From NCBI GenBank assembly GCA_965215275.1, contig OZ244044.1:736001-800000 (forward strand): DNA of 64,000 bases. The letters run 5' to 3'. The position numbers and the translations under genes are program-made. The DNA comes from Thermodesulfobacteriota bacterium (GTDB taxonomy: Bacteria; Desulfobacterota_D; UBA1144; Nemesobacterales; JAJCZQ01). Numbering within the stretch: the stretch's first letter is position 1; each line of letters opens with the position of its first letter. The notes under the pieces were generated by a model. That model did no database searches, had not been told where the DNA came from, and saw only the letters and a program-made list of their open reading frames with translations. Below, piece by piece: positions 1 to 64,000 of this stretch.

Positions 1-2
1 CC

Positions 3-1427
3 TCTGACCACATTCTCTTTTGATATAACGTTCCCAGCTTGCATCGGGAGACTCTCGTCCTTATTCCCACCCGACAAAAAGGATAAACCTCTTTTGAGAA
101 CGTTATTAGCTGCGTTTAAGTCAGCATGGACTTTATAACCACAGGACATGCACTTAAATAACTTTCCTTTTCTGTTATTTTTAGCTACGTATCCGCATGC
201 AGAACAGGTCTGGCTTGTGTATTGGGATGGAACTCTTATTATCTTACCTCCAGTGCTCTCAACCTTGTAAGTAAGCTGACTAAGGACCTTTCCCAATCGC
301 TGTTCCTGTATAGACCTGTTCAATCCTGATTTCTGCTTTACGTTCTTACCTGGATCTTCCACGGTCCCCTTAGCGGACCTTGTCATATTCTTTAACTTTA
401 GATCTTCTACTATAAAATGATTACCATGACCCTTTACTATCCCTGTAGTTAATTCATGTATTTTATTATGTTCCCTTTCAGTGGTCCTTGCACGTTCTTT
501 GGCATAAGCTGTTTTCTTCTTGTTTCTGTTGTTAGATCCTTTTTCTGCTCTGCTTATTGCTCTTTGCTTTCTTTTAAGTTCCTTCCTGTCTATTTCTGTT
601 CCTTTATAGAAAGTTCCATCCGATAAGGTAATTCTGTTCTTCACTCCGAGATCTATCCCTATCGGTCTGTCTGACCCTCTGTCCACTCCTGCAACGGTTT
701 CATATACAAACTGTATCTCTACTCTTAAAGCAGTTCTTACTATCCTTATGTATTTAGTTCCTTCCGGTATCCTGCCTTTGAAACTCATCCTGCCTGCTCC
801 TCTTACCGACAAGGAAGTTCTTCTGTCTTGTTTCTTAACTCTACTCCATTGGTAAGTTTCAAAACTTTTTATCTTTCTGCTACTGTTCTTATATCTCGGA
901 CGACCACGTATCCCTTTTAGATATTCTTTATAAGCCTTATCCAGTCTTTTTAATGTCTTCTGTTGTGCTTGAGCGTCAACCTTACTAAACTCATCAGACA
1001 GTAAAAGGTCGTTCCTTATTTCCGTCAGTGATCTTGCCTGATCTTCGTAACTGATAGATTTCTTTCCTATTTCTTCTTCTGATAACTCTCTCCAGTTTAA
1101 CGGGTCGTTACAAGGTCGGACTTCACTTCTAACCCTGTTAAGAGCTATATATACCTTGTCTATATGTTTAACTGTATTACCTTTATTATAAGAAAGTCCA
1201 GACTTCCAGTGTGGATAGAAATACGTCTTAAATCTCTTTTCTGATAAACCCCATTTCATCAGTTTCTCATATTTATCATATGATCTTATCCTTTCTTCAC
1301 GAGCTCGGTTATAAAGGTAGGTAAGCTGGTTTAATGTATGTTCCAGCTTCTTATGAGCAGACGGGTCTAACTTAACCGCCCTGCGGTCTACTCTCGTTTT
1401 TCTGATCACACTTCCTTCACTATCCAT
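3..1427 (-). CDS. tnpB: RNA-guided endonuclease TnpB (3' end runs off the window; absent from ORF track)
   Basis: Hand translation from ATG 1427 (MDSEGSVIRKTRVDRR...) gives RuvC-I PIGIDLGV, RuvC-II IVEDLKL, zinc finger CSAC/CMSC and RuvC-III HADLNAA in one frame; clear paralogue of 36211..37602. Confidence 0.92.
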   Translation of the reverse strand, partial: MDSEGSVIRKTRVDRRAVKLDPSAHKKLEHTLNQLTYLYNRAREERIRSYDKYEKLMKWGLSEKRFKTYFYPHWKSGLSYNKGNTVKHIDKVYIALNRVRSEVRPCNDPLNWRELSEEEIGKKSISYEDQARSLTEIRNDLLLSDEFSKVDAQAQQKTLKRLDKAYKEYLKGIRGRPRYKNSSRKIKSFETYQWSRVKKQDRRTSLSVRGAGRMSFKGRIPEGTKYIRIVRTALRVEIQFVYETVAGVDRGSDRPIGIDLGVKNRITLSDGTFYKGTEIDRKELKRKQRAISRAEKGSNNRNKKKTAYAKERARTTEREHNKIHELTTGIVKGHGNHFIVEDLKLKNMTRSAKGTVEDPGKNVKQKSGLNRSIQEQRLGKVLSQLTYKVESTGGKIIRVPSQYTSQTCSACGYVAKNNRKGKLFKCMSCGYKVHADLNAANNVLKRGLSFLSGGNKDESLPMQAGNVISKENVVR

Positions 1428-1481
1428 ATCTATATAATTCCCTGATTTACAGCACTATCAAAGCTATTTGCTTGTCTTTGT

Positions 1482-1502
1482 CTAACAGAGTATATAATCC
1501 CC
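1482..1502. repeat. Cassette end motif (right-end orientation) 75 bp upstream of tnpB
   Basis: gagtatataatcccc at 1488-1502; same spacing from the tnpB ATG as the end at 37653-37674. Confidence 0.7.
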
Positions 1503-1770
1503 TAAACTTATATCAAACCGTTAACGTTCGGTCAACTTTTTTAACGGATCAGATCCTTATATTTTAACCTTTTATTCTCCACAGATTTACTCAAAGCAAC
1601 CATACGATCAAGTGTGTCAATGTTTTAAATAGTTATGATAGGCTTATTTAAAATTATTTAAAGTTTTATGTATTTTTGTACATAGTTTCCAGATTTTAGT
1701 AATGTCAACTGCACGGGTATATTTTCATATGAGAACTTATTAACTTAATAGATCTGCAAATTTCGATAAA

Positions 1771-2715
1771 ATGCGTATCTGCTCATTCCTACCAAGCACC
1801 ACGGAAATAATTTGCGCCTTAGGTTCGCAAAACGACCTTGTTGGCATAACCCACGAATGCGATTATCCAGAATCAATACTGAACAAAACCAGGGTTGTCA
1901 GCAGCAGTATTAACCTAAATGGTCTATCAAGCCGTGAGACAGATGAAATAGTTGCCAAGAATGCAAGGAAGGGAAAAAGCACGTATCTGGTGAATTTGGA
2001 ACAGTTAGAGGAAGCAGACCCGGACATAATATTCACGCAGGGACTTTGTGAGGTGTGTGCAGTATCAGAAAATCAGGTAATAGAAGCCACAGAAAAACTG
2101 AAAAAAAGACCGGAGATCATTTCCCTGGAACCCGGAACCGTAAATGAAGTACTGGAATCAATAGTTACAGTTGGCAAGGTTATAGGTAAGGCAAAGGAAG
2201 CCGATGAACTAAGAGCAGGTCTTCAAAAAAGAATCGATGACGTCCGGTCTGTAACACAGAGAAAGAGAGATTTTCCCAGAGTGCTTTGTCTGGAATGGCT
2301 CGACCCTGCCTATGTTGCCGGTCACTGGGTTCCTGATATGGTTCACATTGCCGGCGGAAAGAACGGGCTACGAGAAAAAGGAGAAGTTTCCGTAAAGATC
2401 GGATGGGAGCAGATAGTGGAATTTGCCCCGCAATACATATTTATTATGCCATGTGGGTTCAATATAGATAAAACTCTCGGGGAGATAGACGTAATTACTT
2501 CCAGACCCGAATGGTATCAAACTCCGGCATCACAAAATGGAAACGTCTATCTAGTTGATGCCAATTCTTACTTCAGCAGACCCGGGCCGAGATTGGTTTC
2601 AGGTATTGAAATTATTGCAAAAACAATACACCAAAACTCATTTAAACTGGAACTACCTCCGGATTCTATCCTAAACCTCAGAAACTTTATGCAAATAGAA
2701 TGCTTTCTGGGTTAA
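1771..2715 (+). CDS. BtuF-like cobalamin/iron ABC substrate-binding protein
   Basis: RICSFLPSTTEII, THECDYP, LEWLDP, FSRPGPRL motifs. Confidence 0.8.
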   Translation: MRICSFLPSTTEIICALGSQNDLVGITHECDYPESILNKTRVVSSSINLNGLSSRETDEIVAKNARKGKSTYLVNLEQLEEADPDIIFTQGLCEVCAVSENQVIEATEKLKKRPEIISLEPGTVNEVLESIVTVGKVIGKAKEADELRAGLQKRIDDVRSVTQRKRDFPRVLCLEWLDPAYVAGHWVPDMVHIAGGKNGLREKGEVSVKIGWEQIVEFAPQYIFIMPCGFNIDKTLGEIDVITSRPEWYQTPASQNGNVYLVDANSYFSRPGPRLVSGIEIIAKTIHQNSFKLELPPDSILNLRNFMQIECFLG

Positions 2716-2735
2716 CGGACGGCAACAATCCCAAT

Positions 2736-3002
2736 TTATGAAGGAGCTTTAAATGGATTAGGTGCGTCTTCTTCAACGTCAGGAGCAGAATCAGCAGAAG
2801 CCGGAGATTCTTCAGATGCCTCAGCGGATACAGCAGATTTAAATGGATCATCAACATTACTCGGAGTTGAACCTGAAGGTTCCTGCGTGGAAGCATCCTG
2901 ACCACTGTCCGAAGGTGTATCACTTGTATTCTTGTTAATTAAAATTACCACAAGAACAATGAAAACAACTATTACCGAAATTACAACAATATCTTGCGAC
3001 AT
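2736..3002 (-). CDS. Small membrane-anchored low-complexity protein
   Basis: Likely start MSQ at 3002 after GGAG; hydrophobic N-terminus, S/D/P/A-rich tail. Confidence 0.5.
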   Translation of the reverse strand: MSQDIVVISVIVVFIVLVVILINKNTSDTPSDSGQDASTQEPSGSTPSNVDDPFKSAVSAEASEESPASADSAPDVEEDAPNPFKAPS

Positions 3003-4223
3003 TTTCTCCTCCCAATTACCATTAAAATCTTGTAATAGAATCCAAAATGGTTTTATTACAATACATTTGTCCATATTATCAGTAAATTTATATTTTTTCC
3101 AGAAATTTTTACAATCTCTGTAAAATTATAAATATCTGATACTAACTCGTTCTTCAGTTTATTATACGAACAATAATGCAAGTTATATCACCAGTTAGTT
3201 CTAACACACTCGACTTTTCAAATGAACCACGCATTGAACTATCAGTGATCGGATCCGGCTTGATAGTTACCAAAGTCGGAACATCAGTTGTCTGTATTAT
3301 TCATGAACCAGTCCATTATAAGCGGAGTTTATCGCTGACTACTTTATATCAATAATAATAAAATCCCTTATTCCTCCGGGATATGAGCTTATTTCTGTCC
3401 TTAGAAAAGGTGGTGTATCAATAACAATAAACTCTCTTATTCCTTCGGGTGTTACCTGTATGTAGTCACCTATCTCCCTGCCGATCAGAGCCTGTGCCAA
3501 AGGAGTTTCAATATTAATCTTGCCATTTTTCGGGTCCACTTCACCAGCAACCACTTGAATTTTTCCTTTCTTTCCAGTCTCAATATCTTCAATCACCACA
3601 ATATCATTGATTGTTATACACTTAGGACTAGGCTTAATAGAAGTTATATCCTGGGCTTTTTTAACTTCGCGAAGGTGGTCATCCCTGCTTGTTATGAGAT
3701 TAGGTTTGGGCTTAGTGGAAGTTATATCTTGGACCTTTTTAACTTCACGAGGGTGACTATCTCTGCCTGCTATGTGATTAGGACTAGGTTTAGTGGAAAC
3801 ATCTTTATTATCATCCGAAGGTATATTACTTTTGTAAATCTTGTCTCTAAGCCTTCGTAAAAAAGAGCGAAGCATCAACTTTATTCTCATCCAAATATTA
3901 TTACTACCGCATTCATTAAATTTACTGCAAGAACAATGAAAGCGATTATTATCAAAATTATAACAATACTCGACATTTTCTCCTCACAATTACCATTAAA
4001 ACCTTGTAAAGTGAATATTTTACCAGAATTTTTATAATCTCTGTTAAACTTTAATAATCTGATATTAACTCGTTCTTCAGCTTTGTATACAGACAGTTAT
4101 GGAAATTATATCGCCATTTAGTTCTCATACGCTCGACTTTTCAAACGAACTACGCATTGAGCTATCAGTGATCGAATCCGGCTTGATAGTTACCAAAGCC
4201 GGAGACTCAGTTGTTCTTATTAT
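2950..4223. repeat. Diverged direct repeat pair (~2950-3301 and ~3930-4223)
   Basis: cgacattttctcctc(c/a)caattaccattaaaa and tcagtgatcg(g/a)atccggcttgatagttaccaaag occur in both copies. Confidence 0.85.
3339..3890 (-). CDS. Chimeric ORF: 26-aa repeats fused to a GreA C-terminal domain
   Basis: VVIEDIETG...TPEGIREFIVID closely matches the greA C-terminus at 26817..27293. Confidence 0.7.
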   Translation of the reverse strand: MRIKLMLRSFLRRLRDKIYKSNIPSDDNKDVSTKPSPNHIAGRDSHPREVKKVQDITSTKPKPNLITSRDDHLREVKKAQDITSIKPSPKCITINDIVVIEDIETGKKGKIQVVAGEVDPKNGKINIETPLAQALIGREIGDYIQVTPEGIREFIVIDTPPFLRTEISSYPGGIRDFIIIDIK

Positions 4224-6551: not shown

Positions 6552-6705
6552 CTCGCCTATCCTGTTGAAAAATGATAGATTAGGTAATCCAATTAATTTG
6601 GATATTTCTTACGCTTAATATATCCGTTTACAATATACCCTTTGTGCGAACCCTTTTCGAGCACGATACCTTGACCATGTGCACGCAGGTGAGTGGTCCC
6701 TAAAA

Positions 6706-7191: not shown

Positions 7192-7195
7192 GTTT

Positions 7196-10395: not shown

Positions 10396-10439
10396 ATTTT
10401 ATAATCTAAACAAGTTCGTTGATACTTACATTATACAAT

Positions 10440-17730: not shown

Positions 17731-19986
17731 GGGAAGTATATATTTAACCATGCTAAAATAAAATATAGCCTTTGTATATTGATAGTTATTAACTAAGTAA
17801 GAGATATTATTTATCCATTTGACGTTCAGGCATGATAAAAAGTCAAATAAAAAGAGTTATGAACATGAACATCTTATTTAGAATAATACCCCCCCCCATT
17901 AAGTCAGTAATTCCCTTTTTCTTTCTTCTGTGTTTTGTATCCATTGAGACATATGGACAGATCGATAACTGTGACACCAGTACTACCGGTTTCAATGATC
18001 CCTTATACGGCTGTCAGTGGCATCTGAAAAATACAGGACAGCTTGGGGCTGTAACTACCTCTGGAGAAGATATAAACGTAGAAGGGGTCTGGGATAATGG
18101 CACGTTAGGTGCTGGAATTAACGTGGCGGTGGTAGATGACGGTATGCAGACGGGTCATGCGGACCTTACGGACAATGTAAATACCAGACTGAACCATAAT
18201 TATTCAGGAAGCGGTAATGTATACGACCCTTCAAAAGCTCGTGGTACACGTGTATCGGGAGTTATAGCAGCAGCGGGTGATAACAGCCTTGGAGTAAGAG
18301 GTGTAGCACCACAGGCAAGTATCTATGCTTATAACTTAGCTGGTAACTTCAGCGGTACCAACGCAAAGGATGCCATGGTCCGTAACAGAGATATAACGGC
18401 TGTATCCGTCAACAACTGGGGACCGGATGACACGGCTGTTCTTATAGAGGCTTCATCAGAGTGGGAAGAAGGAGTGAGAACTGGTATAAGAGAAGGGTTT
18501 GGTGGTAAAGGGGTGTTTTACGTATGGGCGGCAGGGGACGGATATGAAGGATCAGATCAGGCTAATCTTGACGAGTACTCCAACTACTACGCTGTAACTG
18601 CGGTATGTTCGGTAGATGGAGAAGGGAACAAGAGTTCTTTTTCAGAAGAAGGAGTAAATCTGTGGGTATGTGCTCCAGGTGAAGATATTACAACTACTGA
18701 TAATAACGATGGATATATTTATGATGCGAGTGGAACGGCATATTCAGCAGCGCAGGTTGCAGGTGTGGCGGCACTGATGAGAGAGGTAAACGGTGACCTT
18801 GGCTGGAGGGACATAAAGCTGATACTTGCAGCTTCAGCCCGTAAGAACGACGCTTCCGACACGGGCTGGGAGACAGGAGCACATAAATACGGTTCTGATA
18901 CAGAGAGTTATAATTATAATACTAAGTACGGTTTTGGTGTGACAGATGCTGATGCGGCAGCAGGACTTGCCGGAAGCTGGACCACTGTTCCACTGATGAG
19001 AACCCTTACTGCTTCCTCGGGTTCCATTGATACGGCAATCCCCGACCGCGATAACGAAAACAGAGTAGACGGAGAAGTTACTGACAGACTGACCATACCA
19101 GATACTTCTCTTTTTTTTACAGAGTTTGTAGAGGTTGAGCTTAATTTCTCTCACACGTTCTTACCAGAACTGGAAATACAGATAACGTCTCCTGACGGTA
19201 CTGTGTCGAAGTTTACTGAGGAATATGTAACAGCAGCTTTCAAAATTATAGACGACACTTCACTCATTATGGATGACTTTAGCTACACGAACAAAACTTA
19301 TCGTTTTGGTTCAGCTAGGCACCTTGGAGAAGCCCCTTCCGGAGAATGGGTTTTGAAGATATCTGACACTTCTCCTGACGATACAGGGACTTTACATTCC
19401 TGGAGCATTAACGTTTACGGGCATAAGGCCGTAGAAGGTACGGCACCAGGCTTTGAAGGTGAGACGATAGATAATAAGAATTATGTGACGGGCAGAGCAA
19501 TAACACCAGAGACGCTGCCTTTGGCAGCGGGAGGGGAGGGAATATTAACTTACAGCCTGTCCCCTCGTTTACCTGCTGGACTTACTTTCAGATCAGCTGA
19601 CAGAACGCTGAGCGGAACACCAACTGCTGCATCTTCTGGCAGGTATATGTATGCAGCGACGGATGAAGATGGAGATAAGGATGAGCTGAGTTTTACGATC
19701 AGGGTAAGAACCCCAGCTGGTCGGACGTCAGGTACTGACGCAGGTGGAGGAGGATGTGTGCTCTCCGATCAGAACGAAGCTATTTCTGATCTGTCCGGAG
19801 CAGTGGCATCTCTGATGCTGATACCTGTATCTGTAGCGATCAGAAGAAGGATAAGGTCTCTCGGATAAAGACCTAGTAATTCACTCCTTTCCAGGACACT
19901 TAACTAACTGATATCTTTCCGTCAGATCTGATGTTGTTAAAAAACATCGTCTTTGTTCATTCAGCATAGCTGCCTGTATAATTTCC
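17731..19986. mobile_element. Degenerate TIR-bounded cassette carrying S8 paralogue 1
   Basis: Left end gggaagtatatatttaaccatgc, right end gcatagctgcctgtataatttcc (15/23 inverted match); flanks aaatataa / aaagacaa. Confidence 0.45.
17832..19868 (+). CDS. Kexin-like S8 protease homologue (catalytically dead) with P domain, Ig-like repeat and GGGGC-TM tail
   Basis: DPLYGCQWHL, VAVVDDG; catalytic His->Arg (ARGT) and Ser->Ala (GTAYS). Confidence 0.88.
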   Translation: MIKSQIKRVMNMNILFRIIPPPIKSVIPFFFLLCFVSIETYGQIDNCDTSTTGFNDPLYGCQWHLKNTGQLGAVTTSGEDINVEGVWDNGTLGAGINVAVVDDGMQTGHADLTDNVNTRLNHNYSGSGNVYDPSKARGTRVSGVIAAAGDNSLGVRGVAPQASIYAYNLAGNFSGTNAKDAMVRNRDITAVSVNNWGPDDTAVLIEASSEWEEGVRTGIREGFGGKGVFYVWAAGDGYEGSDQANLDEYSNYYAVTAVCSVDGEGNKSSFSEEGVNLWVCAPGEDITTTDNNDGYIYDASGTAYSAAQVAGVAALMREVNGDLGWRDIKLILAASARKNDASDTGWETGAHKYGSDTESYNYNTKYGFGVTDADAAAGLAGSWTTVPLMRTLTASSGSIDTAIPDRDNENRVDGEVTDRLTIPDTSLFFTEFVEVELNFSHTFLPELEIQITSPDGTVSKFTEEYVTAAFKIIDDTSLIMDDFSYTNKTYRFGSARHLGEAPSGEWVLKISDTSPDDTGTLHSWSINVYGHKAVEGTAPGFEGETIDNKNYVTGRAITPETLPLAAGGEGILTYSLSPRLPAGLTFRSADRTLSGTPTAASSGRYMYAATDEDGDKDELSFTIRVRTPAGRTSGTDAGGGGCVLSDQNEAISDLSGAVASLMLIPVSVAIRRRIRSLG

Positions 19987-31545: not shown

Positions 31546-31576
31546 TAAATAAAGGGGAAATCAAGATTTATTTTTA

Positions 31577-31594
31577 TTTATGTATATAATTCCC
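31577..31594. repeat. Cassette end motif (right-end orientation), no partner found
   Basis: tttatgtatataattccc; 17-bp exact reverse complement of 63318-63334. Confidence 0.65.
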
Positions 31595-31643
31595 AAAGTT
31601 AAAATGGAAAAAACACTTCCGGTGGTGCTACGGGTATTTTAAG

Positions 31644-31702
31644 ATCAGAAGAGCAAGAAGAACTCTGCAATCAGAAGAGCAAGAAGAACTCTGCAATCAG
31701 AA
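31644..31702. repeat. 26-bp tandem repeat x2.3
   Basis: atcagaagagcaagaagaactctgca twice plus atcagaa. Confidence 0.9.
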
Positions 31703-31748
31703 CAGTAAGGATATTGTTGTCAAACGATATTTATAGTTTCCACAAACA

Positions 31749-36120: not shown

Positions 36121-36260
36121 GGGACTTATATACTTTAGTACATAAGTACTAAACATACTGTTCTGCAAGCAGAGTCCCTCTTAATTCCCCGTTCTCTTTT
36201 GATAAAACATTTACAGCCTGCATCGGGAACTCAAGTCTGGCTGTCCCACCCGACATAGTG
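36121..36260 (-). ncRNA. Putative omegaRNA scaffold overlapping the tnpB 3' end
   Basis: Conserved with 1-76 and 58417-58545; perfect hairpin tttagtac-ttat-gtactaaa; tcggg/cccga stem. Confidence 0.6.
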
Positions 36261-37602
36261 TCTTTTCACTATTGCAAATGTTTATAGCTGCATTCGTGTC
36301 TGCATGGTCTTTATGACCGCAATACACACACTTAAATACTTCTCCTTTTCTGTTCCTTTTATCTCTGTATCCGCACTCAGAACAGGTCTGTGACGTCCAT
36401 TGAGCCGGGTTCCTGATCAGCTTGCCACCAGTGCTTTTAACCTTGTATTCAAGCTGATTTAATACCTTGCCCAATTGCTGTTCCCGTAAGGACCTGTTTA
36501 ATCCAGATTTCTGCTTTACTTTCTTACCCGGATCTCCCACGGTCCCCTTTGCCGATCTGCTCATATCCCTTAATCTCAGATCTTCTGATATAACAAAATT
36601 ATACGCTCTTGACAGTTCTGTAGTTAACCTGTGTATTTTGTTATGTTCCTTTATTGCTGTTCTTGCTCGTTCCTTCCCAAGCAGTTTTACCTTCTTCTTT
36701 CTCCCGTTGGAACCTTTTTCAGCTCTTGAAACTGCTCTTTGCTTTCTTTTGTCTTTCTTTCTGCTTACTTCAGTTCCCTTGTAAAACGACCCATCTGATA
36801 AAGCAATCCTGTTCCTTACTCCAAGGTCTATTCCTATCGCTCTGTCCAGTCCTCTGTCCTCTCCAGCTATTGTTTCGTAAATAAACTGGATCTCTACTCT
36901 TAAAGCTGTTCTTAATATCCTGATGTATTTTGTTCCTTCCGGTATGCTTCCTCTGAATGAGATCCTGCCTGCTCCCTTTACCGTTAAATATGTCCTTCTC
37001 TCTCCTTTCTTTACATTTCCCCATGTATATGTTTCAAAACTTCTTACCTTCCTGCTGCTGTTCTTATATCTAGGACTGCCTCTCAATCCTTTAAGATGTT
37101 CACTGTATGCCTTATCCACTCTCTTTAACGTCCTTTGCTGTCCCTGAACGCCTGCCTTGCTGAATTCTTTCAATAAAACATCATTCCTTATCTCAGTCAG
37201 TGACTTCGCCTGATCTTCGTAACTTACTGACTTCTTCTTTATCTCCTGTTTTGTTAACTCTCTCCAGTTAACTGGATCTTCGCAAGGTCTTATAGTACTT
37301 ACAAACCTGTTAACTGCTTCATAAACTGTATCCAGATATTTAACTCTGTTCTTCTTGTTGTAAGAAGTACCAAACTCCCATTGTGGGTAGAAATACATCT
37401 GTAATCTTTCTTCTGACAAACCCCACTTCTTCAGCTTCTTGTATTTTTTGTACGCTTCTTTCCTTTCTTCCAGAGCGCTGTTATACAGATAGGTAAGCTG
37501 GTCCAAAGTCCTTTCCAAACCCTTATGAGTTGAAGGGTGATTCAATCCAGCCACTCTGCGTTCCGTCCTCGTCTGCTTAATTATCCTGTTTTCTCTATAC
37601 AT
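36211..37602 (-). CDS. tnpB: RNA-guided endonuclease TnpB
   Basis: AIGIDLGV, ISEDL, CSEC/CVYC, HADTNAA: RuvC D-E-D intact. Confidence 0.95.
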   Translation of the reverse strand: MYRENRIIKQTRTERRVAGLNHPSTHKGLERTLDQLTYLYNSALEERKEAYKKYKKLKKWGLSEERLQMYFYPQWEFGTSYNKKNRVKYLDTVYEAVNRFVSTIRPCEDPVNWRELTKQEIKKKSVSYEDQAKSLTEIRNDVLLKEFSKAGVQGQQRTLKRVDKAYSEHLKGLRGSPRYKNSSRKVRSFETYTWGNVKKGERRTYLTVKGAGRISFRGSIPEGTKYIRILRTALRVEIQFIYETIAGEDRGLDRAIGIDLGVRNRIALSDGSFYKGTEVSRKKDKRKQRAVSRAEKGSNGRKKKVKLLGKERARTAIKEHNKIHRLTTELSRAYNFVISEDLRLRDMSRSAKGTVGDPGKKVKQKSGLNRSLREQQLGKVLNQLEYKVKSTGGKLIRNPAQWTSQTCSECGYRDKRNRKGEVFKCVYCGHKDHADTNAAINICNSEKTLCRVGQPDLSSRCRL

Positions 37603-37730
37603 TCCTCTGTAATTATACCACGATCACACTTAGCTATTAAGTCCTTTGTTGGGTACTTAAGTATATAAGTCCCCAATTTTTTATTATGTTTATCCAACTC
37701 GTGATTTGTTTAAAGAATAAAGGTTAAGAT

Positions 37731-37868
37731 ATGGGTAGGAAACAAAAGATAATTCCCCCATTAGATGCAACATTTGATGAAGCAATAAAAATAATGTTTG
37801 CTCCCCAAATAGAACTATCTAAAAAATATAGAACTCAAAGAAAATTAAAAGAAAATGAAAAAAGTTAA
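37731..37868 (+). CDS. 45-aa micro-ORF between stacked cassette ends
   Basis: MGRKQKIIPPLDATFDEAIKIMFAPQ...; similar peptide at 45345-45476. Confidence 0.55.
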   Translation: MGRKQKIIPPLDATFDEAIKIMFAPQIELSKKYRTQRKLKENEKS

Positions 37869-37895
37869 GTAAATCAAAAGATTAAATTATCTTGG

Positions 37896-37940
37896 GTACT
37901 AAAGTATATAGTCCCCTTTTTTATTAAAGTATATAAGTCC
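37896..37940. repeat. Two further right-end motif copies
   Basis: gtactaaagtatatagtcccc (37896-37916) and ttaaagtatataagtcc (37924-37940). Confidence 0.8.
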
Positions 37941-37954
37941 GTCAATTAATGATC

Positions 37955-43939: not shown

Positions 43940-44116
43940 TGTACCACGGCTTAATGGGTTGTTGTTTTAAAATCAGGGAACTATATACTTTATTCACCAG
44001 AAAACGAGTAAGGAGTTAGTACAATAATCAAATTAAATTCAGACATAGAATTAGAAAAAAATAAGGAAACAGACATAAATATTTCCTGTGGAGATACCAA
44101 TACTTTAATTAAGAAA

Positions 44117-44782
44117 GTGCAGGATAATTCCATTGATCTGATCGCTACCGACCCTCCATATCAGATTAATTTTGAAAATAATAACTGGGATAAGAAAGAC
44201 GGACTGAATTGGAACTTTTTAGCAAGTGAGTTCGCAAGGGTTTTAAAACCAAGCGGGAGTTTAATTATTTTTCAAGGATGGTCTCACGTTGCTGATACCA
44301 AGGTTATTCTGGATAAATACTTTACATTAAAAAACTGGATCATCTACGACAGAGTAAAAGGACGAGGTGCCAAGACCAACCTGGTCTCAACACGGGAAGA
44401 TATACTTTGGTATGTAGTGGATGAAGATAATTATACGTTTAACAAGGTCAGTTCCAGCATTAAAAAGAAGACAAAGGGGATGGGATTAAAGAACGGCAAT
44501 GAATTCAGGGCATTATCAAACGTCTGGTCCGACATTCCTCCACTTGTTCCCTGGAGCCAGGAAAGAGTGGATCATCCTACTCAAAAACCGCTGTATTTAA
44601 TGGATAGAATAATCAGAATATATTCAAATGAACATGATACGGTATTAGATCCTTTTTTAGGAAGCGGAACTACATCGGTTGCCTGTAAACTACTGAACAG
44701 AAACTGTATTGGTTTTGAATCAGAAAAAGAATACTTTCAGATAAACAAGGAAAGAATTAGCCATTATGGAAGACTTATTTAG
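44117..44782 (+). CDS. DNA amino-methyltransferase (beta class); true start probably upstream
   Basis: TDPPY, HPTQKP, LDPFLGSGTT. Confidence 0.92.
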   Translation: MQDNSIDLIATDPPYQINFENNNWDKKDGLNWNFLASEFARVLKPSGSLIIFQGWSHVADTKVILDKYFTLKNWIIYDRVKGRGAKTNLVSTREDILWYVVDEDNYTFNKVSSSIKKKTKGMGLKNGNEFRALSNVWSDIPPLVPWSQERVDHPTQKPLYLMDRIIRIYSNEHDTVLDPFLGSGTTSVACKLLNRNCIGFESEKEYFQINKERISHYGRLI

Positions 44783-45344
44783 AGATGGCATACTCAATTT
44801 AAATACTCGCCAGTTTGGAACTGCTGTAGAGCTTATTGTTGTACTGTTAAAACGTTATAGGAAAAGCAATCAGCTTGATTGTGATTTAATTGATCCAGAA
44901 ACCAATAAAAAAATAGAAGTAAAATCTTCAAGAGTTTATAAAAAGCAGTCTTTAAATTTTACTTTGGATAATCTATACGATTTAATTGTTAATAACACAA
45001 ACAGAAATCGTTTGTTAAGGCAGGATCAGGCAACACAAGAAAAGTTTGATTGCAATATACAACAGGTCAAAACAGATCTATTTGATACACTTTATTATTT
45101 ATTATTTTTCTATGATGTTATTGAAGTGTTTAAAATTGAAAATGAAGAAATACAAAAAGATGTGAATTTGAATTATAGTAATAGGCAACATAGAGGAAAC
45201 GAAGGAGAAGGTCAGTTTCACATAACACAAAAAAATTATAAATATCATAGAAATAAATACTTTATTCAGTCAATAACATATGAAGAGATTAAAAAACTAT
45301 TATTAAATAAGGAGTATTTTAATATAAAAAGAAGATCAAAATGA
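44766..45344 (+). CDS. Putative type II restriction endonuclease
   Basis: DLID...IEVKSS PD-(D/E)XK motif; overlaps the MTase stop. Confidence 0.75.
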   Translation: MEDLFRDGILNLNTRQFGTAVELIVVLLKRYRKSNQLDCDLIDPETNKKIEVKSSRVYKKQSLNFTLDNLYDLIVNNTNRNRLLRQDQATQEKFDCNIQQVKTDLFDTLYYLLFFYDVIEVFKIENEEIQKDVNLNYSNRQHRGNEGEGQFHITQKNYKYHRNKYFIQSITYEEIKKLLLNKEYFNIKRRSK

Positions 45345-45556
45345 CAGAAAAAGAGAACTTATACAAATATATTTAATCCTCATATAACAGCAATGATGGA
45401 AGAGGTAGCTAAAGCTATATTCAGACCTAATGCTGAATTTAAAGAGAAATCTTTAAGAATGAAAACAAAAAACTAATAAAACTAAATAATAACTTTGGCG
45501 AACAAAGTATTTAGTTCCCAAAAATTATTGTTATTATATTTTCCTTTTTTTCTGAA

Positions 45557-51804: not shown

Positions 51805-51909
51805 AAAAGAGTTATGAAAAATCCAAATATAAAAAATGTAGTTCCATTACCCCACCCCCCCCCGTGTATACCTGAACTTTCAGTTATATATAAGTATTTT
51901 GTAAGAACA

Positions 51910-54571
51910 ATGTTTAAGATAATACCCCCCCCCATCTAAGTCATTACTAACTTTAGTCTTTATTCTTCTGTTTATACTGGTAATAGCTGCAAAAGGGCAG
52001 AGCAGCCTGGAAGAAACATTATCTGAATGCAGAGATATCAGTGCAGGAACGGAAGATCCGTTATACGGATGTCAGTGGCATCTGAAGAACACAGGACAGT
52101 TAATTTATTCAGGTAAGAGAATAACATCAGGAGAAGATATAAACATAGAGGGAGTGTGGAACGAAGACGTATACGGTGCCGGAATTAACGTAGCAGTAGT
52201 AAGTGACGGCATAGACCTTTCACACGAGGACCTTTCTGCTAACGTCCGTTCCGGACCGAACTATGATCTTTCTGAAAGAAACAATTCAGAAGAGAACAGT
52301 TCAGAAAAAGATAATTCAGAAAGAGATGATCTTTCAGACGGTTCATCCTTTACCGGAACACGAGCGGCAGGAGTAACAGCAGCAACTGGATATAACGGAC
52401 TGGGAGTAAGAGGAACAGCACCTGGTGCGAGTATATACAGTTACAGGTTATCCGGTGATCTCAGTGAAGCGGACGCGGTGGTCCGTAATAAGGAAATAAC
52501 GGCAGTATCGGTTAACGGCCGGGGATCTGAGGACGGAGCTTTTTTTCAGGAGGCTTTATCTTCCTGGGAAGAAGGAGTGGAACTTGGTATAAGTAAAGGG
52601 TTTTATGGTAAAGGAGTGTTTTACGTCCGGGGAGCAGGGGACGGGCATGAGAATAACGATCAGGCTAATTTTTCTGAATATTCTAATTACTACGGCGTAA
52701 CTGCCGTGTGTTCAACAGACGGCTTTGGAAAAAAGAGTATATTTTCAGAAGAGGGAGTAAATCTATGGGTATGTGCACCTGGTTCTGATATTGTAACTAC
52801 TGATAACAATAACGATTACGTTGTAACATCCGGAACTGTCCTATCAGCTTCACAGGCTGGAGGAGTGGCAGCACTGCTGAGAGAGGTGAATGGAAATCTG
52901 AGCTGGAGGGATATAAAGCTTATACTTGCGGGTTCAGCACGGCAGAACGACGTTTCTGACCTTATCTGGGAGACTGGAGCATTTAAATACGGCTCTGACG
53001 TGGAAAGATATAAATATAATCCTAAGTATGGTTTTGGAGTGGTAGACGCGGAAGCAGCGGCAGAGCTTGCAGAAAGCTGGAAAGGCGTTGGTGAGATGAG
53101 GACCGTTACAGCCTTTTCAGATAATGAGATAACAATTCCTTATGGAGAAGGGAATGGAGAAGGAGAGGCAGACGGGGTCGCTGTCTCAGGACTTATTATC
53201 CCTGACCTTGAAGAAACAACGTTTACGGAGTTCGTTGAAGTTGAACTTGTTCTCTCGTGTGACTGCTTACAGGACCTCAATATAAATATAACCTCTCCTT
53301 CCGGGACAGTATCTGAACTTGTGCGGGAGGTTGTAAGTGGACCTTCGGATGAAAAAGAAAAGAACTGCGTCAGTTACCTGAGAAGAACACATCGTTTCGG
53401 GTCGGCAAGACACCTCGGAGAAGACCCTTCCGGAGAATGGATCCTTCATATAACTGATACTGCTTATGGAGATGAAGAAAATGAAGAAAACACCGTTACC
53501 CTGCACTCATGGAGCGTTAAGGTGTATGGACATTTTTATCAGGGATCTGGCAGTGAGATCACTCCTAAAGCTTTAACCTTCGGCGGTGCGACGATCCCAA
53601 CCCAGAATTATTTTGTAGGAGAAGCAATAACACCAGTAATGCTGCCTGAGGCAACCGGGGCAAGCGACATAACATACAGTTTTAATCCTGCTTTAGCAAG
53701 AGGATTGGAATTTGATCAGGATACCCGAACTATAAGCGGAACACCAGCTATTACTCATGTGTCAGGTCGTTTGTATTCATATGTTGCAAGAGGTGGCGGA
53801 CGGATTGTAACTATACCTTTTACTATTAGAATTAGCCCTCGACGAGTGCCGACCTTCGGCAGTGAGACCATAGATAATAAAGTGTATATAAACGGCATTA
53901 CAGCAGTAAATGAAACACTGCCTGAAGCAACGGGAGGGAATGCTCCATTAACTTACAGTTTAAGCGGTACTTTACCTATTGGAGTAATTTTTACCGCAAA
54001 CACCAGAGAGTTAAGTGGAACACCCAATGTTGATAATAATCTAAGTATACTTCCTTTAACTTTGTCTTACACATATAAAGTAACAGACAATGATGGAGAT
54101 ACAGAAGAGATAACGTTCAGTATCACTACAGAAGAAGACAGCGACCCGGACTTCAGCGGTGTGACAATACCTGCTCAGGTGTACAGGGGGAGAACAATAA
54201 GTCTGCCTGAAGCAACGGGAGGGAATGCACCGTTAAGATACAGTATAGATCCTCGTTTACCGACGGGAATGAGATTGAACGAAGACACAGGGGTAATAAG
54301 CGGGACGCCCGCGAGTGCGTCGTCTGAGAGGACCTACACGTACACGGTAACGGACAGGAATGGAGGTACGGACGAGTTGACTTTCATGCTCAGTGTAGCG
54401 GCACCTCCACCGACATCAACGGGCAGTGGTTCAGGCGGAGGTGGAGGAGGATGTGCGATATCAGATCAGAGCAGCACTGCTTCTGATATTCTCGGAGTAA
54501 TGATATGTCTGATGCTCATACCTGTGTCAGTAGTGATTAGAAGGAAGAGAAGAGATCAGGTAAAGAATTAG
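51910..54571 (+). pseudogene. Kexin-like S8 homologue 2 (catalytically dead), signal peptide out of frame at a C9 tract
   Basis: ATG 51910 hits TAA 51937; removing one C gives signal peptide plus DPLYGCQWHL in frame with 52154..54571; D->S, H->T, S->V. Confidence 0.8.
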
Positions 54572-54821
54572 CAATGAGATTATTTTCCAAAACACTGAAC
54601 GAATTAAAATCTCTCAGCCAGAATAAAGGAATAATAGTGGAAAGACTAAATATAGATCTATCGGCAAATGGGTACCTTGATGGTATTGATGCTTGTTTTT
54701 TTAATCTCGGACAATACAGTATATAATGCCCAAAGAAAAACATCTAGAAAGTAAATTAAATTACCTTATTCTTGTCTTTCTAATTGAAACAATAGTCACA
54801 ACTTATAACTTTAATCTCAGG

Positions 54822-58097: not shown

Positions 58098-58416
58098 GAT
58101 ATTTTTAGAAAATTATATAGATAATATGACAAAAGTATAAAGATCTTTCCATTTTCTTTATACGTTCTGAAAATATGTAAAAATTTTTGCGATTTTTTTA
58201 CATATTAACTCTTCATTGCTTTACTAAATATGATAATTTAAGTACTATATTCTTCTGTTTTTTTACTCCTTTCTATTTTACCATAAAAGTCTTGGAAACC
58301 CTGTGAATTCTTGTTTTATGATTATTTCATCTTCTTCATCTCTGGCTTTTAACACTCTTGTGTTGGCATAATTGATATAGTCCCACTCCTTGTATTATAA
58401 TTCCTAAACAGCCAAA

Positions 58417-58545
58417 GGAAATAATATATTTTAGCACCAAAGCACTAACTACACTGTTTTACGAGCAGGTATCCTCTGTCCCTGAAACCTTTTGAGTTAA
58501 AACATTCCCAGTTCGTATCGGGAGACTCTCGTTTTTCTCACAGGT
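58417..58545 (-). ncRNA. Orphan omegaRNA-like sequence without tnpB
   Basis: Collinear with 36121-36230 and 1-58 (atcgggagactctcgt identical to 43-58). Confidence 0.6.
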
Positions 58546-58671
58546 TTTCTGTCAATAAGGGTGTATATTTTTTTCCATTGAAGACACAAACTGCAGATAC
58601 AATGTCATCATTTGACAGATATGCTGACGGAAAATTTCAGTCCGTTCAATGCCTTCGAAATATAGACTGCA

Positions 58672-61002
58672 TTAATACATCTTTATATGAGGCCTTATCT
58701 TCCTTCTGATCACTACTGATACAGGTATCAGCATCAGACATGCAATTACTCCAAGCAGATCAGAAACAACATCGTTCTGATCGGAGATCGTACATCCTCC
58801 TCCACCGCCGGCATCAGTATCTGGCGTCCGGTCTTCTATTGGACTATTTACCCTGATCGCAAAACTCAACGAAGCCATATCTCCATCTGCGTCTGTTACC
58901 GTATATGTGTAAGTAGTTCTTCTCATTGCACTGGTGAGTGTTCCACTTATCACTCGAGTGGTTTTATTAAAACTCAATTCAGCAGGTAAAGCAGGAGTTA
59001 AACTGTAAGTTAATGGAGCATTCCCTCCTGTTGCAGCAGGTAACGTTTCTGTTACTGCTGTACCCCACATATACTCCTTATCAGTTATCATCTCATTGCC
59101 AAAGGTCAGTGCTGTATGACCATGAACTTGAACGCTCCACGAGTGTAAAGTCCCTATACCATTTCCAGAACGAGTGTCAGATATCTTCAAAGTCCATTCT
59201 CCAGAAGGGTCTTCTTCGAGATGCTTAGCTGAACCAAAGCGATGAGTGTGGTTGGTGTATGCAAAATCCCCGCGTAAGATCTGAGAGACATATATAACCG
59301 ATCCCGCTACATATTCCTCGGTAAGTTGCGACACAGTACCCTCAGGGGACGTTATCTGTATCTCTAACTCCGGAAAGAAAGTGTGAGTGAACGTGAGAAC
59401 TATCTGTACAAATTCTGTAAAAAGATCAGTATCAGTTATGGTCAGGGTGCTTGTAATTCCAAGTGGGTCATTATCAGGAATTGCCTCCTCGACACTCTCA
59501 TAAGCAATCAGAGTTCTCATCTGTGGAACCCTGTTCCAACTTCTGGAAAGTTCTACTGCAGCCTCAGCATCCACTACGCCAAAACCGTACTTTGGATTGT
59601 AATTATAACTGTCTGTATCAGAACGGTATTTAAGTGCTCCCATCTCCCAGCCCGGATCGGTCGGGTCGGTCTTGCGGGCTGAAGCTGCCAGTATCAGTTT
59701 CAGGTCCCTCCAGCTAAGATCACCGTTTACCTCCCGCATCAGTGCTGCAACCCCCGAAACGATCGGAGCAGAAAGTGACGTTCCGTTAACTCCAATACGA
59801 TAACGGTCTTTATTAGTGGTCGTTGTAATAAGCGAACCTGGAGCACATACCCACAGATTTACTCCCTCTTCCGAAAAGGAACTTTTCCTGCCACTGCCAT
59901 CTACAGAACAGATGGAAGTTACAGCGTAGTGGTTAGAATACTCTTCAAAATTAGCCTGGTCGTATAAAGTATGTCCATTTCCAGCTGCCCAGCTGTAAAA
60001 AACTCCTTTGCCACCAAACCCTTCCCTGATACCTGTTTCCACTGCCATTTCCCAAGCACTGTCAGCAGGGTGAAGAACGGCAGTATCCGGTGCTCCCCAG
60101 CTGTTGTTGGATACTGCAGTTGTAGTTCGGTTACGGGTCATAGCATCCGCCCTGTTAGCCCTAGTAAAATTACCCCCTCCTATCAAGTTATAATTATAGA
60201 TACTTGCCTGAGGTGCCACTCCTCTTATACCAATCCCATTATCACCCACCGCTGCTAAAATGCCCGATACATTTGTACCATGAGCATCTAAAGGATTAAA
60301 TACATTTCTGTTTCCAGAGTAATCATGATTCAGGCTGGGATTTACATTGGCAGCCAGGTCCTCATGATCGGGGTCCATACCACTATCTACCACCGCCACG
60401 TTAATTCCATTCCCAAATACTGCATCATTCCAGACCCCCTCCACGTTTATATCTTCTCCAGCAGTTATTCTCTGCCCGTTGAACTCCAACTGCCCCGTAT
60501 TTTTCAGATGATACTGACAGCCATATAAGGGATCGTTAAAATTAGTGGCAATGTTCCCACAATCAGATAACAGATCATTATAATCAGTATCCGTTGCAAC
60601 TGTAATCTGGTAATCAACAGCTCCACTGCTTCCCACAACGATATAGTACGTTCCAGGTCTGAGACGAGCTGGAATTCCGAGGCGAGCTATAAGACTGTTA
60701 GTCCTATTTGCTATCAGATTATAGTTGCTGTCACAAAGCTGTAAACTGTAATCTAAATTATTATGGGTGAAGGTTGTCTCTATATTTACGTTAACGTCAG
60801 ATGCCGGGTCTATCTGAAAATATTCCAGTCCACCGGCACTTTCAAAACTTCCATCGTGTGCTGCTCCGTCCACTGTCAACGTGGCTTCAACCGTTTCACT
60901 GGAGTCGCAATTATTATCACTGGTCTGACCATATGCACCTATGGACACAAAACACATGAATGCAGATACAAAACACAGCAGATAAAATGATGGGAATTGC
61001 AT
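58672..61002 (-). CDS. Kexin-like S8 serine protease (intact triad) with PPC-like N domain, P domain, Ig-like repeat and GGGGC-TM tail
   Basis: VAVVDSG, AHGT, AAGNG, NGTSLSAP. Confidence 0.92.
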   Translation of the reverse strand: MQFPSFYLLCFVSAFMCFVSIGAYGQTSDNNCDSSETVEATLTVDGAAHDGSFESAGGLEYFQIDPASDVNVNIETTFTHNNLDYSLQLCDSNYNLIANRTNSLIARLGIPARLRPGTYYIVVGSSGAVDYQITVATDTDYNDLLSDCGNIATNFNDPLYGCQYHLKNTGQLEFNGQRITAGEDINVEGVWNDAVFGNGINVAVVDSGMDPDHEDLAANVNPSLNHDYSGNRNVFNPLDAHGTNVSGILAAVGDNGIGIRGVAPQASIYNYNLIGGGNFTRANRADAMTRNRTTTAVSNNSWGAPDTAVLHPADSAWEMAVETGIREGFGGKGVFYSWAAGNGHTLYDQANFEEYSNHYAVTSICSVDGSGRKSSFSEEGVNLWVCAPGSLITTTTNKDRYRIGVNGTSLSAPIVSGVAALMREVNGDLSWRDLKLILAASARKTDPTDPGWEMGALKYRSDTDSYNYNPKYGFGVVDAEAAVELSRSWNRVPQMRTLIAYESVEEAIPDNDPLGITSTLTITDTDLFTEFVQIVLTFTHTFFPELEIQITSPEGTVSQLTEEYVAGSVIYVSQILRGDFAYTNHTHRFGSAKHLEEDPSGEWTLKISDTRSGNGIGTLHSWSVQVHGHTALTFGNEMITDKEYMWGTAVTETLPAATGGNAPLTYSLTPALPAELSFNKTTRVISGTLTSAMRRTTYTYTVTDADGDMASLSFAIRVNSPIEDRTPDTDAGGGGGCTISDQNDVVSDLLGVIACLMLIPVSVVIRRKIRPHIKMY

Positions 61003-61634
61003 GTTTATAACTTCTGTTTGTAATTACCTGATCGCAACCTCACGCCATCAGTTGTAATTTGATAATACCATACTACTGTAAAAAAGAATTTTGGTCTTTT
61101 TAGTTGCTGAGGATATTTGCATCTTTAATGACTCTGATAAGGTAATTGCACTTGGTTTTAACAAACTGTTTATCCTCAATCTTCTCGACATCGAATGCAA
61201 TCTAAACTTACCTATTTTTATAAATAAACCTCTGATCTTTGACTATGAACATCTGAAAGTTATAAGAGCAACATTTACTTTAAAGTGCGGGCAGATGGGT
61301 TATAATACACAACGGATCTAATATATCATGGGATGTATAAAGGATATGAATTATTTCCTTTTATGTCTCGCAGGATATGATAATAAATATAAACTCAAAG
61401 GAATGTGTCCTGTGTTCGGGTTAGATGGTTATACTAATCATAAGAATGATGTTGATTTTATGATCAAAGATTTCAAAGGTATTACAGACGATACTGTTTA
61501 CTAGATCACAGAAGGAATATTTAGTAAAGTATATTTTAGTCCATTCCCAGGAAGAGATATTAACGTTTACATATGTAGTTTTTTAATTATTTCTTGTTTA
61601 CTAAAGTATATCATTCCGAAAAATCCAATAGAGG

Positions 61635-61853
61635 TTGATCATGCAGAAAAGCACTAACGTGAGAAATGGTAAAGATACCGCGCAGGATTATCATTTTCTT
61701 ATAACTAAAGCGTGGAAAAGAAGTAGAAAAAGAGATGCCAAAAAGTCCCTTGATGAGGGTGTCCTGGAATACAAACAAATGGTAAACGAACCACCTTGTG
61801 AGCGTGATGAGGACCGTGGATGTGTAAATATCAGTGAGCCAACCTGTCAATGA
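61635..61853 (+). CDS. Hypothetical protein
   Basis: 72-aa ORF with GAGG RBS and ATGA overlap with the epimerase. Confidence 0.4.
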   Translation: MIMQKSTNVRNGKDTAQDYHFLITKAWKRSRKRDAKKSLDEGVLEYKQMVNEPPCERDEDRGCVNISEPTCQ

Positions 61854-62779: not shown

Positions 62780-62845
62780 TACTGTCGTTCTTTGATTGAT
62801 AACTGCTTTATAAATCGTTATCATAGAAGGTCTCGGAGGTAAAAA

Positions 62846-63064
62846 ATGTCCAAGAAGAATGAAAAATTTTATGATGTAAGGGTTTCTGAAAGGTATATAA
62901 AAGAAGGTGTTATAAGTAAAAAACAGTATGAAGATCATATAAAAGGTCTTTCGGACGCTGAAGACAAAAGTGAAGTTCTTGTCATAGAGGAAGGAACGGA
63001 AGAGGAAGGAACGGAAGAGGAAAACGCAGAGGTAGACGAAGATGATGGCAAAGAAACAGAATAA
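62846..63064 (+). CDS. Small protein with acidic tail
   Basis: GGAGG RBS; DVRVSER motif; E/D-rich C-terminus. Confidence 0.7.
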   Translation: MSKKNEKFYDVRVSERYIKEGVISKKQYEDHIKGLSDAEDKSEVLVIEEGTEEEGTEEENAEVDEDDGKETE

Positions 63065-63278
63065 CAATTCAAAATGGGAATATAAAGTTGTTACGAGTGA
63101 TTATCTGACAAAAGAAGCTCAAAGCCATGATATTGCAGTTTCACGCGAAGCTTCAACCGCAATAAAGGAAACGGTCAGGGGAAATTTGGAGTCATCCCTG
63201 AGTAATCTGGGAAAGAACGGCTGGGAATTTACAGCCGTTATGGGTGAATTTGTAATATTTAAAAGACCTAAAGACTGA
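63042..63278 (+). CDS. DUF4177-like protein
   Basis: WEYKVV...LGKNGWE...IFKRP. Confidence 0.75.
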   Translation: MMAKKQNNNSKWEYKVVTSDYLTKEAQSHDIAVSREASTAIKETVRGNLESSLSNLGKNGWEFTAVMGEFVIFKRPKD

Positions 63279-63316
63279 TCTGATAGACACTCTCTGTTTC
63301 TCATATATTGTCTAAA

Positions 63317-63360
63317 AGGAATTATATACATAAATTGAGGAAGTTATATACGTAATTTGA
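63317..63360. repeat. Two tandem left-end motif copies
   Basis: aggaattatatacataaattga followed by ggaagttatatacgtaatttga. Confidence 0.7.
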
Positions 63361-63395
63361 CAAGCCAATTACAAGAAAACGAAGAGGAGTTGATT

Positions 63396-64000
63396 ATGGC
63401 TATTTTTGAATTACAGGACGGGAAATTTAATAGTCTTAAAAAAATTGATTTTGGTACAGAGAATATCCTTGAAACAAATATCCAAGATGCCGTAAAGGAT
63501 AATATTGATGTCATAGCCTCAGATTGTATTATAATTGCCAAAGAATTCTCACAATGGAACGATTCAAATCGTAGAATTGATCTCCTTGCTGTTGACAAAA
63601 AGGCAAATCTTGTTGTCATTGAGTTAAAGCGTAAAGATGGTAGAGATATGGAACTTCAGTCATTGCGGTATGCTGCAATGGTTTCAACTCTTACCTATGA
63701 AGATGCTGTAAAAACTTATGAAAAGTATCTTGAATCAATAGGTAGTAATTCTAATGATGCTGAAAACAACCTTCTTAATCATTTTGGATGGGAAGATACA
63801 CCTAAAGAAGATAAGTTTGCATTAAATGTTCGTATTATCCTTGTATCAGAGGATTTTTCCTCCGAACTGGCAACAACTGTCCTGTGGCTAAATGAGATAA
63901 CAAGTGAGACCATACCAAAAATCACCTGCATTCGTTTAATTCCTTATAAATATGAGGATAAGATATTTATAGCTCCTCAACAGATAATCCCATTACCCGA
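63396..64000 (+). CDS. NucS/DUF91-like PD-(D/E)XK endonuclease (partial, runs off window; absent from ORF track)
   Basis: MAIFELQ...RRIDLLAVDKKANLVVIELKR...LQSLRYAA; GAGGAG RBS. Confidence 0.8.
   Translation, partial: MAIFELQDGKFNSLKKIDFGTENILETNIQDAVKDNIDVIASDCIIIAKEFSQWNDSNRRIDLLAVDKKANLVVIELKRKDGRDMELQSLRYAAMVSTLTYEDAVKTYEKYLESIGSNSNDAENNLLNHFGWEDTPKEDKFALNVRIILVSEDFSSELATTVLWLNEITSETIPKITCIRLIPYKYEDKIFIAPQQIIPLP

Follow-up and report, generated by a model that had tools for sequence, protein, structure and literature searches.

Insertion sequences of the IS1595 family carry terminal inverted repeats of 14-25 bp in two reports (PMC5704250, PMC12561309). The IS1595 elements MTnSag1/tISSag10 and tISCpe8 have 25-bp repeats and 8-bp duplications (PMC5704250), and ISApl4 has A+T-rich 8-bp repeats and a circular form (PMC12561309). 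Linkage of the nuclease TnpB to DDE transposases is also on record: the main text of Altae-Tran et al. (2023; PMC10691335) sets out six DDE-linked TnpB branches, DDE-1 to DDE-6, and a 2026 review, in its section on the subject, names ISL2, IS630 and IS1031 as partners and calls such pairings rare in prokaryotes (PMC13565253). In IS200/IS605, TnpB cleaves the donor joint after religation and so favors retention of the element (Meers et al., bioRxiv 2023.03.14.532601). Here we analyzed a window of 64,000 nucleotides, positions 736001-800000 of the complete 1.99-Mb chromosome of a Thermodesulfobacteriota bacterium (G000), in which one terminal repeat bounds cassettes carrying tnpB, restriction-modification (R-M) or subtilase-like (S8) genes. 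In our view these cassettes have IS1595-type ends but no transposase of their own, are likely moved by transposases encoded elsewhere, and include a TnpB that is predicted to cut the empty site under RNA guidance.

Terminal repeats and their IS1595 transposases

The first-pass annotation of this DNA described a motif of ~21 bp. The repeat is real, but its logo gave a length of 25 bp, with conservation setting in sharply at a terminal GGG. A position weight matrix scan of the whole genome, which that annotation had proposed, placed the motif far above background: 231 matches at ≥15 bits (three local shuffles gave 4, 8 and 7) and 198 at ≥18 bits (the shuffles gave 0). Sixteen of the 231 fall in the window, and 210 lie outside open reading frames (ORFs), by crude ORF calls that leave 13% of the genome non-coding. 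This matrix was refined on the genome itself; one built from the window copies alone gave 163 genome matches at 18 bits, including 14 window copies. All six left ends first proposed (17731, 36121, 43976, 58417, 63317 and 63339) were present with scores of 16.5-29.4 bits, as were the eight right ends, at or near their proposed positions, with terminal bases at 1502, 19986, 31594, 37673, 37916, 37941, 45519 and 61618. The end at 19986 scores only 6.9 bits in the general matrix and belongs to a variant shared with ends at other S8 genes. Three weaker copies had also been listed: the one at 1430 is real (13 bits, an internal duplicate), but those at 58373 and 58391 found no support (0.5 and -13 bits). 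The scan added further copies at 1690, 31741, 54731 and 58108.

Target duplications adjoin these repeats. Among the 301 facing pairs of ends <15 kb apart in the genome, 19 have exact 8-bp direct repeats directly outside the GGG (0.13 expected) and 26 have near-exact ones (2.4 expected). This excess occurs at offset 0 only; other offsets gave ≤1 exact match. The duplications are 8 bp long and A+T-rich. For the window elements, the duplication is exact in one, carries 2 mismatches in two and is lost in two.

The genome contains 28 matches to PF12762, the IS1595 transposase domain. None lies within the window, where Pfam searches of 54 ORFs revealed no transposase domain and TnpB as the sole mobile-element domains, in agreement with the earlier statement that the window lacks a transposase. 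Alignment of 13 full-length IS1595 transposases revealed a zinc ribbon and, in most, the residues D, D and E. Several transposases with PF12762 and the zinc ribbon are bounded by the same ends with exact 8-bp duplications, which is the kind of element that the first annotation had proposed to look for; 8 transposase elements have a duplication with ≤1 mismatch. DNA methylases were found in 5/6 scanned passenger-carrying transposase elements, and same-end transposase elements are also present in relatives. The proposed family assignment is thus upheld by the 25-bp repeats, the A+T-rich 8-bp duplications and the PF12762 transposases within the same ends, and it is near certain that the motif is the terminal inverted repeat of IS1595-family transposons. 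The transposase-less units occur in multiple copies with different flanks and have empty sites in relatives. The window cassettes are transposase-less members, likely moved by IS1595 transposases encoded elsewhere.

We compared the window with G001, of the same genus, and G002, of the same family. Empty sites consistent with the ends were seen at three window cassettes, as the earlier reading had anticipated. At the position of the R-M cassette 43976-45519, G001 has one target copy, and at that of the S8 cassette 17731-19986 it has a spacer of suitable length (both alignments read by eye). In place of block 36121-37941, both G001 and G002 have 47-48 bases, at a divergence too high to place the break. 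Block 51642-61849 is wholly absent from G001, where its breakpoints are not placeable. In run X8, a 14.8-kb contig tracks the window to 36120 and then diverges; loose contig ends occur at 36120/36121 and at 37673, in three runs each. Among the contig joints, none pointed to clean excision of the 36121-37673 element or to a circular form of it.

Several further arrangements involve these ends. In G000, two 420-bp short elements bracket an ABC ATPase gene and two TPR genes (C1:17470-21955), with an exact outer 8-bp duplication, forming a composite unit made of non-autonomous ends. In relatives, IS1595 elements are nested or inserted end-to-end (loci L118 and L123), and two loci have near-identical 8-bp target sequences (L116 and L117), a hint of preferred targets. 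The ends may match the consensus of the ISNwi1 subgroup, a tentative label.

TnpB elements and the predicted guide RNA

TnpB is the most frequent cargo to occur singly between these ends. Each of the 19 full-size TnpB elements of G000 has an end on each side and no other gene; 9 of their duplications are exact, 3 have one mismatch, and two of the elements have broken frames. The TnpB groups of G000 are 24-66% identical to one another. The RuvC D-E-D residues are retained in 27/27 aligned TnpB rows, the C4 zinc finger is present, and NF040570 scores above its cut-off. An alignment-based search found TnpB matches in 34/101 genomes of the order, including 30/36 in one other genus; a scan of named genomes with a single protein gave no matches, where the alignment-based scan did. 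We fetched 80 TnpB loci from relatives, best-scoring first, and pooled them with earlier loci. Among these best-scoring loci, end pairs were present in 46/56 of clade A and 24/28 of clade B, with exact duplications at 24 and 15 loci, respectively. Of 25 distant loci tested, three copies (two sites) in Caldilineaceae share the ends, duplication and flank, and the other 22 have no repeat-plus-duplication. Among 57 metagenome loci, one has perfect ends and an exact duplication and 3 more have similar ends; other inverted repeats at these loci look like chance.

The repeat-bounded TnpBs formed two well-supported groups, one of which includes L015, a protein without such ends. A quick tree of 19 rows rejected a single clade of repeat-bounded TnpBs (plus L015; p-AU 0.026), a test that lends modest support because the groups had been seen beforehand. 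Two TnpB lineages therefore probably joined IS1595 ends separately, which we regard as likely but not certain. The elements do not fit IS200/IS605, IS1341 or IS607, since inverted repeats and duplications are present and no such TnpA lies beside tnpB in G000. Searches of five genomes found no serine resolvase in any of them and one weak, single-copy Y1-like match per genome in a frame of 274-308 amino acids (aa), that of G000 being far from any tnpB.

Folding of 49 aligned right ends with RNAalifold gave hairpins overlapping the 3' end of tnpB. In this alignment, 95.5% of cells pair and 11/25 pairs are changed on both sides; covariation was 0.358, compared with 0.203 in shuffles (0/500 reach it) and 0.07-0.13 in slid controls. 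The last helix is formed between subterminal bases and the repeat; two of its pairs show 20 and 10 double changes, and both strands change together with the repeat variant. The terminal CCC can pair with a GGG ~130 bases upstream, a helix that is invariant and uninformative. Rfam returned tRNAs only and no match for the scaffold. These data predict a covarying RNA scaffold that runs through the right repeat of TnpB elements.

Were the guide to start right after the repeat, it would begin with the duplication, and the target-adjacent motif (TAM) would have to adjoin the outer edge of the left duplication, at position -9. In relatives, clade A elements have G at the left -9 in 27/28 sites with intact duplications (14 genomes, unrelated flanks), and the base before it is T or G in 25/28; the mirrored position on the right is G in 7/28. 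In G000, the 407-aa TnpB group has G at -9 in 7/8, compared with 13% of 199 other ends, and transposase elements have it in 0/8. Clade B has a purine at -9 in 15/15 and G at -10 in 12/15. The flank bias goes with the clade of TnpB and not with the variant of the repeat, the pattern expected of a nuclease TAM. Scaffold and flank bias together point to TnpB as a working part of its element, where the first-pass annotation had treated it as one cargo among many.

In the mechanism that we propose, a transposase made in trans would bind any end pair and insert the unit, duplicating 8 bp of target. In TnpB elements, the right end would be transcribed as an omegaRNA, its last hairpin formed with the repeat itself, and the guide would consist of the duplication and the host DNA beyond. 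With the TAM in the base or bases just outside the left duplication, TAM and full target would occur together only in the element-free allele; the filled allele would offer the TAM with only 8 matching bases on its left and a full match without a TAM on its right. By analogy with IS200/IS605, the target of TnpB would be the element-free allele, and the filled allele would stay intact. Empty alleles could arise when an element is excised and the DNA rejoined across the duplication, or could be encountered on sister chromosomes or in incoming DNA; once cut, they would be repaired from the filled copy, so that the insertion is kept or spread and insertions beside a TAM persist. Such an active, site-guarding TnpB is likely, judged from sequence features.

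Several observations weigh against this reading. We found no element with both a transposase and tnpB in G000, at 20 transposase loci or at 137 TnpB loci, in a search of 1-3 kb of flank (1-2.5 kb at the 137 TnpB loci) that longer elements could escape; the cognate transposase is therefore assigned by end similarity alone. Taken singly, right-end sequences show no folding advantage over their shuffles (z -0.6 to -1.6), and the scaffold sequences are related, the structure being derived from the same alignment. Both 36121-37673 and 58417-61618 in the window are without their duplications, and 29/61 S8 genes of G000 have no nearby end. IS1595 excision may be replicative, as the relevant part of PMC5704250 has it, leaving no empty donor to recut; only the route through sister chromosomes or incoming DNA would then apply. 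The 27/28 count covers intact-duplication sites only, and over all 46 clade A end pairs the left -9 is G in 38. Transposase elements of relatives in the same genus have G at -9 in 7/20 on the left (35%) and 4/16 on the right (read by eye); we rely on this fuller count, since an earlier control (1/15 left G) took only elements paired within 4 kb. The window's own 463/484-aa TnpB group lacks the G and has A at -9 in 8/8 (45% background). The last two points would suit a TnpB that is passive cargo like the methylases, with the left G reflecting the target preference of the helper transposase and the scaffold being inherited baggage; that TnpB activity is here a prediction also speaks for it. We consider passive carriage unlikely, because clade A and transposase elements differ in -9 G (Fisher p ~5e-6), transposase elements with clade A repeat variants lack the G (L121, L124; 2/18 same-type ends in G000), the flank motif differs between TnpB clades, the scaffold covaries with the repeat, and D-E-D is retained across TnpBs 24-50% identical. 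Target preference of the transposase may contribute modestly to the left-flank G.

The left bias is one-sided and nearly absolute, stronger than simple retention might give. This could mean that TnpB and its RNA bind TAM-bearing DNA and bias where the helper transposase inserts, rather than selecting insertions afterwards; we regard such steering as improbable, as no physical link or fusion between TnpB and the transposase was seen and the guide of one copy matches its own site only. An alternative that extends the guarding TnpB to other cargo draws on stray scaffold sequence. Outside full TnpB elements we found 13 scaffold remnants, 8 of them followed by a repeat and 6 beside S8 genes, one of the latter being window 58417-58532. 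The S8-adjacent remnants and the end at 58417, a TnpB-type right end with scaffold remnant 58444-58532 (E 2.5e-11), suggest that cargo replaced tnpB inside an element. In a three-tier system, IS1595 ends would move the units, TnpB-only elements would give the nuclease in trans, and cargo cassettes with a TnpB-type right end would make their own guide RNA, holding or spreading host genes, including subtilase-like ones, by RNA-guided drive. We think this rather doubtful; the stray remnants may equally be decaying relics. The repeats might also be read as dif-like 11-6-11 recombinase sites or promoter boxes, the cassettes then being site-specific recombination modules or chance neighbors. The copy at 37649-37676 is a near-perfect 11-6-11 palindrome (10/11) and the motif core is TATA-like, but other window copies have an arm symmetry of merely 2-8/11, and the same ends are found on IS1595 transposase elements. 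The sharp onset at GGG and the 8-bp duplications exactly outside it reject the promoter reading; the duplications effectively refute a dif/Xer site, for which a palindromic 11-6-11 without target duplication would be expected. We give this reading almost no weight, and retain that of IS1595-type ends with an active, site-guarding TnpB.

Cargo genes and features of the window

The ends are enriched at a lineage-specific family of ~60 subtilase-like genes, most of them without the catalytic triad. G000 has 61 S8 genes, 178 kb in total; their P-domain has 57 matches in G000 and 0 in four genomes of the same family (80-99% complete). A facing end lies within 600 bp of 32/61 S8 genes, compared with 41/721 other long ORFs, which bears out the suggested enrichment at accessory-gene borders. 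Sixteen S8 genes lie between two ends, 7 of them with a duplication of ≤1 mismatch still in place (0.27 expected). Part of the family was likely spread by transposition, and the remaining genes may owe their origin to tandem duplication or conversion. In the alignment, the D-H-S triad is kept in only 7/61 genes, and the gene at 17832-19868 has Arg in place of the catalytic His. The description of this cargo as proteases is therefore mostly wrong; in the window the triad is kept only in the gene at 58672-61002. A run of ≥8 C lies near the start in 51 of the 61 genes, in the window at 51860-51935 and 17890-17900, and all three window S8 proteins have a glycine-rich, cysteine-containing hydrophobic C-terminal tail. 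The same ends would also have carried methylase and restriction genes, and likely helped expand the ~60-gene family. These data suggest that a single type of transposon end contributed to the growth of a gene family that now takes up ~9% of a 2-Mb chromosome, and also mobilized R-M genes.

Table 1. Terminal repeats, elements and relics in the window (window positions unless marked as genome)
Feature	Position	Strand	Remarks
TnpB-only element	1..1502 (starts 55 bases before window; genome 735945-737502, 1558 bp)	-	484-aa TnpB, D-E-D kept; exact 8-bp duplication
Left terminal repeat of the 735945-737502 element	1478..1502	-	Weaker internal duplicate at 1418-1442
Lone degenerate end	1666..1690	-	15 bits; partner not found
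S8 cassette, one subtilase-like gene 17832-19868 (S8 + P-domain + Ig)	17731..19986	+	Duplication with 2 mismatches; not in G001
Unpaired right-facing end	31570..31594	-	Adjoins duplicated thiC 3' fragment (31436-31514) and restriction-enzyme-like ORF (30605-31378)
TnpB right-end relic: scaffold remnant + repeat	31606..31741	+	Scaffold match E 9e-4
TnpB-only element, 1553 bp	36121..37673	-	One of four copies 93-95% identical; duplication not kept (4 mismatches)
tnpB, 463 aa	36211..37602	-	D259, E340, D435; C4 zinc finger
Predicted omegaRNA scaffold	36121..36270	-	Overlaps tnpB 3' end and right terminal repeat; covariation
Element relic with two tandem end repeats (37892-37916, 37917-37941)	37731..37941	-	92% copy at genome 889015-889218
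Type II R-M cassette: methylase 44117-44782, restriction-enzyme-like 44766-45344	43976..45519	+	Duplication with 2 mismatches
Subtilase-like gene (to 54571), then right end 54707-54731	52154..54731	+	Catalytic Asp and His lost; left end not found
Lone left-facing end, 17.6 bits	58108..58132	+	Adjoins C5-methylase block 54822-58097
Cassette with subtilase gene 58672-61002 keeping D-H-S	58417..61618	-	Duplication not kept
Two tandem ends before NucS-like / PDC-S11 nuclease gene (63357 onward, 349 aa)	63317..63363	+	No partner end with duplication found

The guide of the 36121-37673 element would begin at 36120 and run leftwards. Its 463-aa TnpB has an N-terminal insertion of ~70 aa compared with the 407-aa group. 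The first-pass annotation had held that every motif copy borders an accessory block and that inverted pairs bracket cargo. The cassettes are indeed paired, but there are also lone ends and blocks from which the ends face away: the MjaI-type R-M pair at 31749-33702 lies outside the 31606-31741 relic and is not bracketed, its adjacent ends facing away, and both neighboring ends face away from the C5-methylase block 54822-58097. The wider claim of a general gene-delivery system goes slightly too far in view of unpaired relic ends, two pairs without duplication and tRNA-anchored islands. Islands 6553-10439 and 45634-48970 adjoin tRNA genes, have no end above 5 bits and use a route other than these ends.

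Island 6553-10439 encodes a type II methylase, a Z1/ResIII helicase and an unknown ORF, and is skipped in runs X8 and X10. Block 45634-48970, of low G+C content and following a tRNA gene, holds a ThsB-like TIR gene and ORFs of 166 and 486 aa, neither with a Pfam, NCBIfam or PADLOC match; it is possibly an undescribed defense module. The C5-methylase block also holds an unknown 273-aa ORF and a 372-aa ORF resembling PD-Lambda-5_A / PDC-M38A. The thiC 3' end is duplicated (89%) at 31436-31514 and 33766-33844, across the MjaI-type pair. Three 78-bp repeats lie within a GreA/GreB-like gene at 3602-3798, with an extra unit apparent in runs X8 and X10, and a second, normal greA is present at 26817-27293. 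A 173-bp tandem duplication (90%) covers the clpP-clpX junction at 14997-15342. At 39682-41799 this bacterial genome encodes a CDC48-like AAA ATPase of archaeal/eukaryotic type, also found in G001 and G002.

Comparison with known systems

IS1595 elements with passengers and DDE-linked TnpBs are already known; IS1595 as a partner of TnpB seemed not to be in print. The main text of PMC10691335 does not mention IS1595 and one of its supplementary files does so once, in a list of hidden Markov models; the branch-defining files may include the pairing. In the literature searched, we did not find IS1595 or ISXO2 described together with TnpB; co-mentions seemed unrelated. Studied TnpB elements have one motif read by transposase and nuclease, with scarless excision. 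Here TnpB, probably after two separate captures, is carried by ends that go with a transposase of loose, A+T-rich target choice and an 8-bp duplication, so that the role of TnpB in a DDE transposon becomes testable. For this compact nuclease of 400 aa, a very short TAM (~KG) is predicted from the flank statistics.

The elements in G000 are like IS1595 passenger elements (tIS; PMC5704250, PMC12561309) in their 25-bp repeats, A+T-rich 8-bp duplications, PF12762/NF033547 with a zinc ribbon, and passengers. They are unlike them in that most units lack a transposase and carry TnpB, R-M or subtilase-like genes, not resistance genes. Like the DDE-1 to DDE-6 TnpBs of PMC10691335 (main text), the TnpBs here have their 3' end near an inverted repeat and occur solo between ends shared with transposase elements, with movement in trans proposed; the partner transposase differs, being IS630 in that text and IS1595 here. 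With IS605/IS1341 and IS607 (bioRxiv 2023.03.14.532601), they share the RuvC D-E-D, zinc finger and right-end scaffold, and we infer here a guide derived from the flank and a TAM in the left flank. Those elements have no inverted repeats or duplication, and their transposase and nuclease share one motif, whereas the elements in G000 have repeats and duplicate 8 bp, and their helper transposases have no strong matching preference. Fanzor1 in eukaryotic DDE transposons likewise places an RNA-guided nuclease inside a repeat-bounded, duplication-making transposon, and there, in the review's account, the TAM includes the 5' duplication and the scaffold contains the 3' one (PMC13565253). Unlike in Fanzor1, the duplication here varies from site to site and the base next to its outer edge is conserved, which would make the duplication the guide seed.

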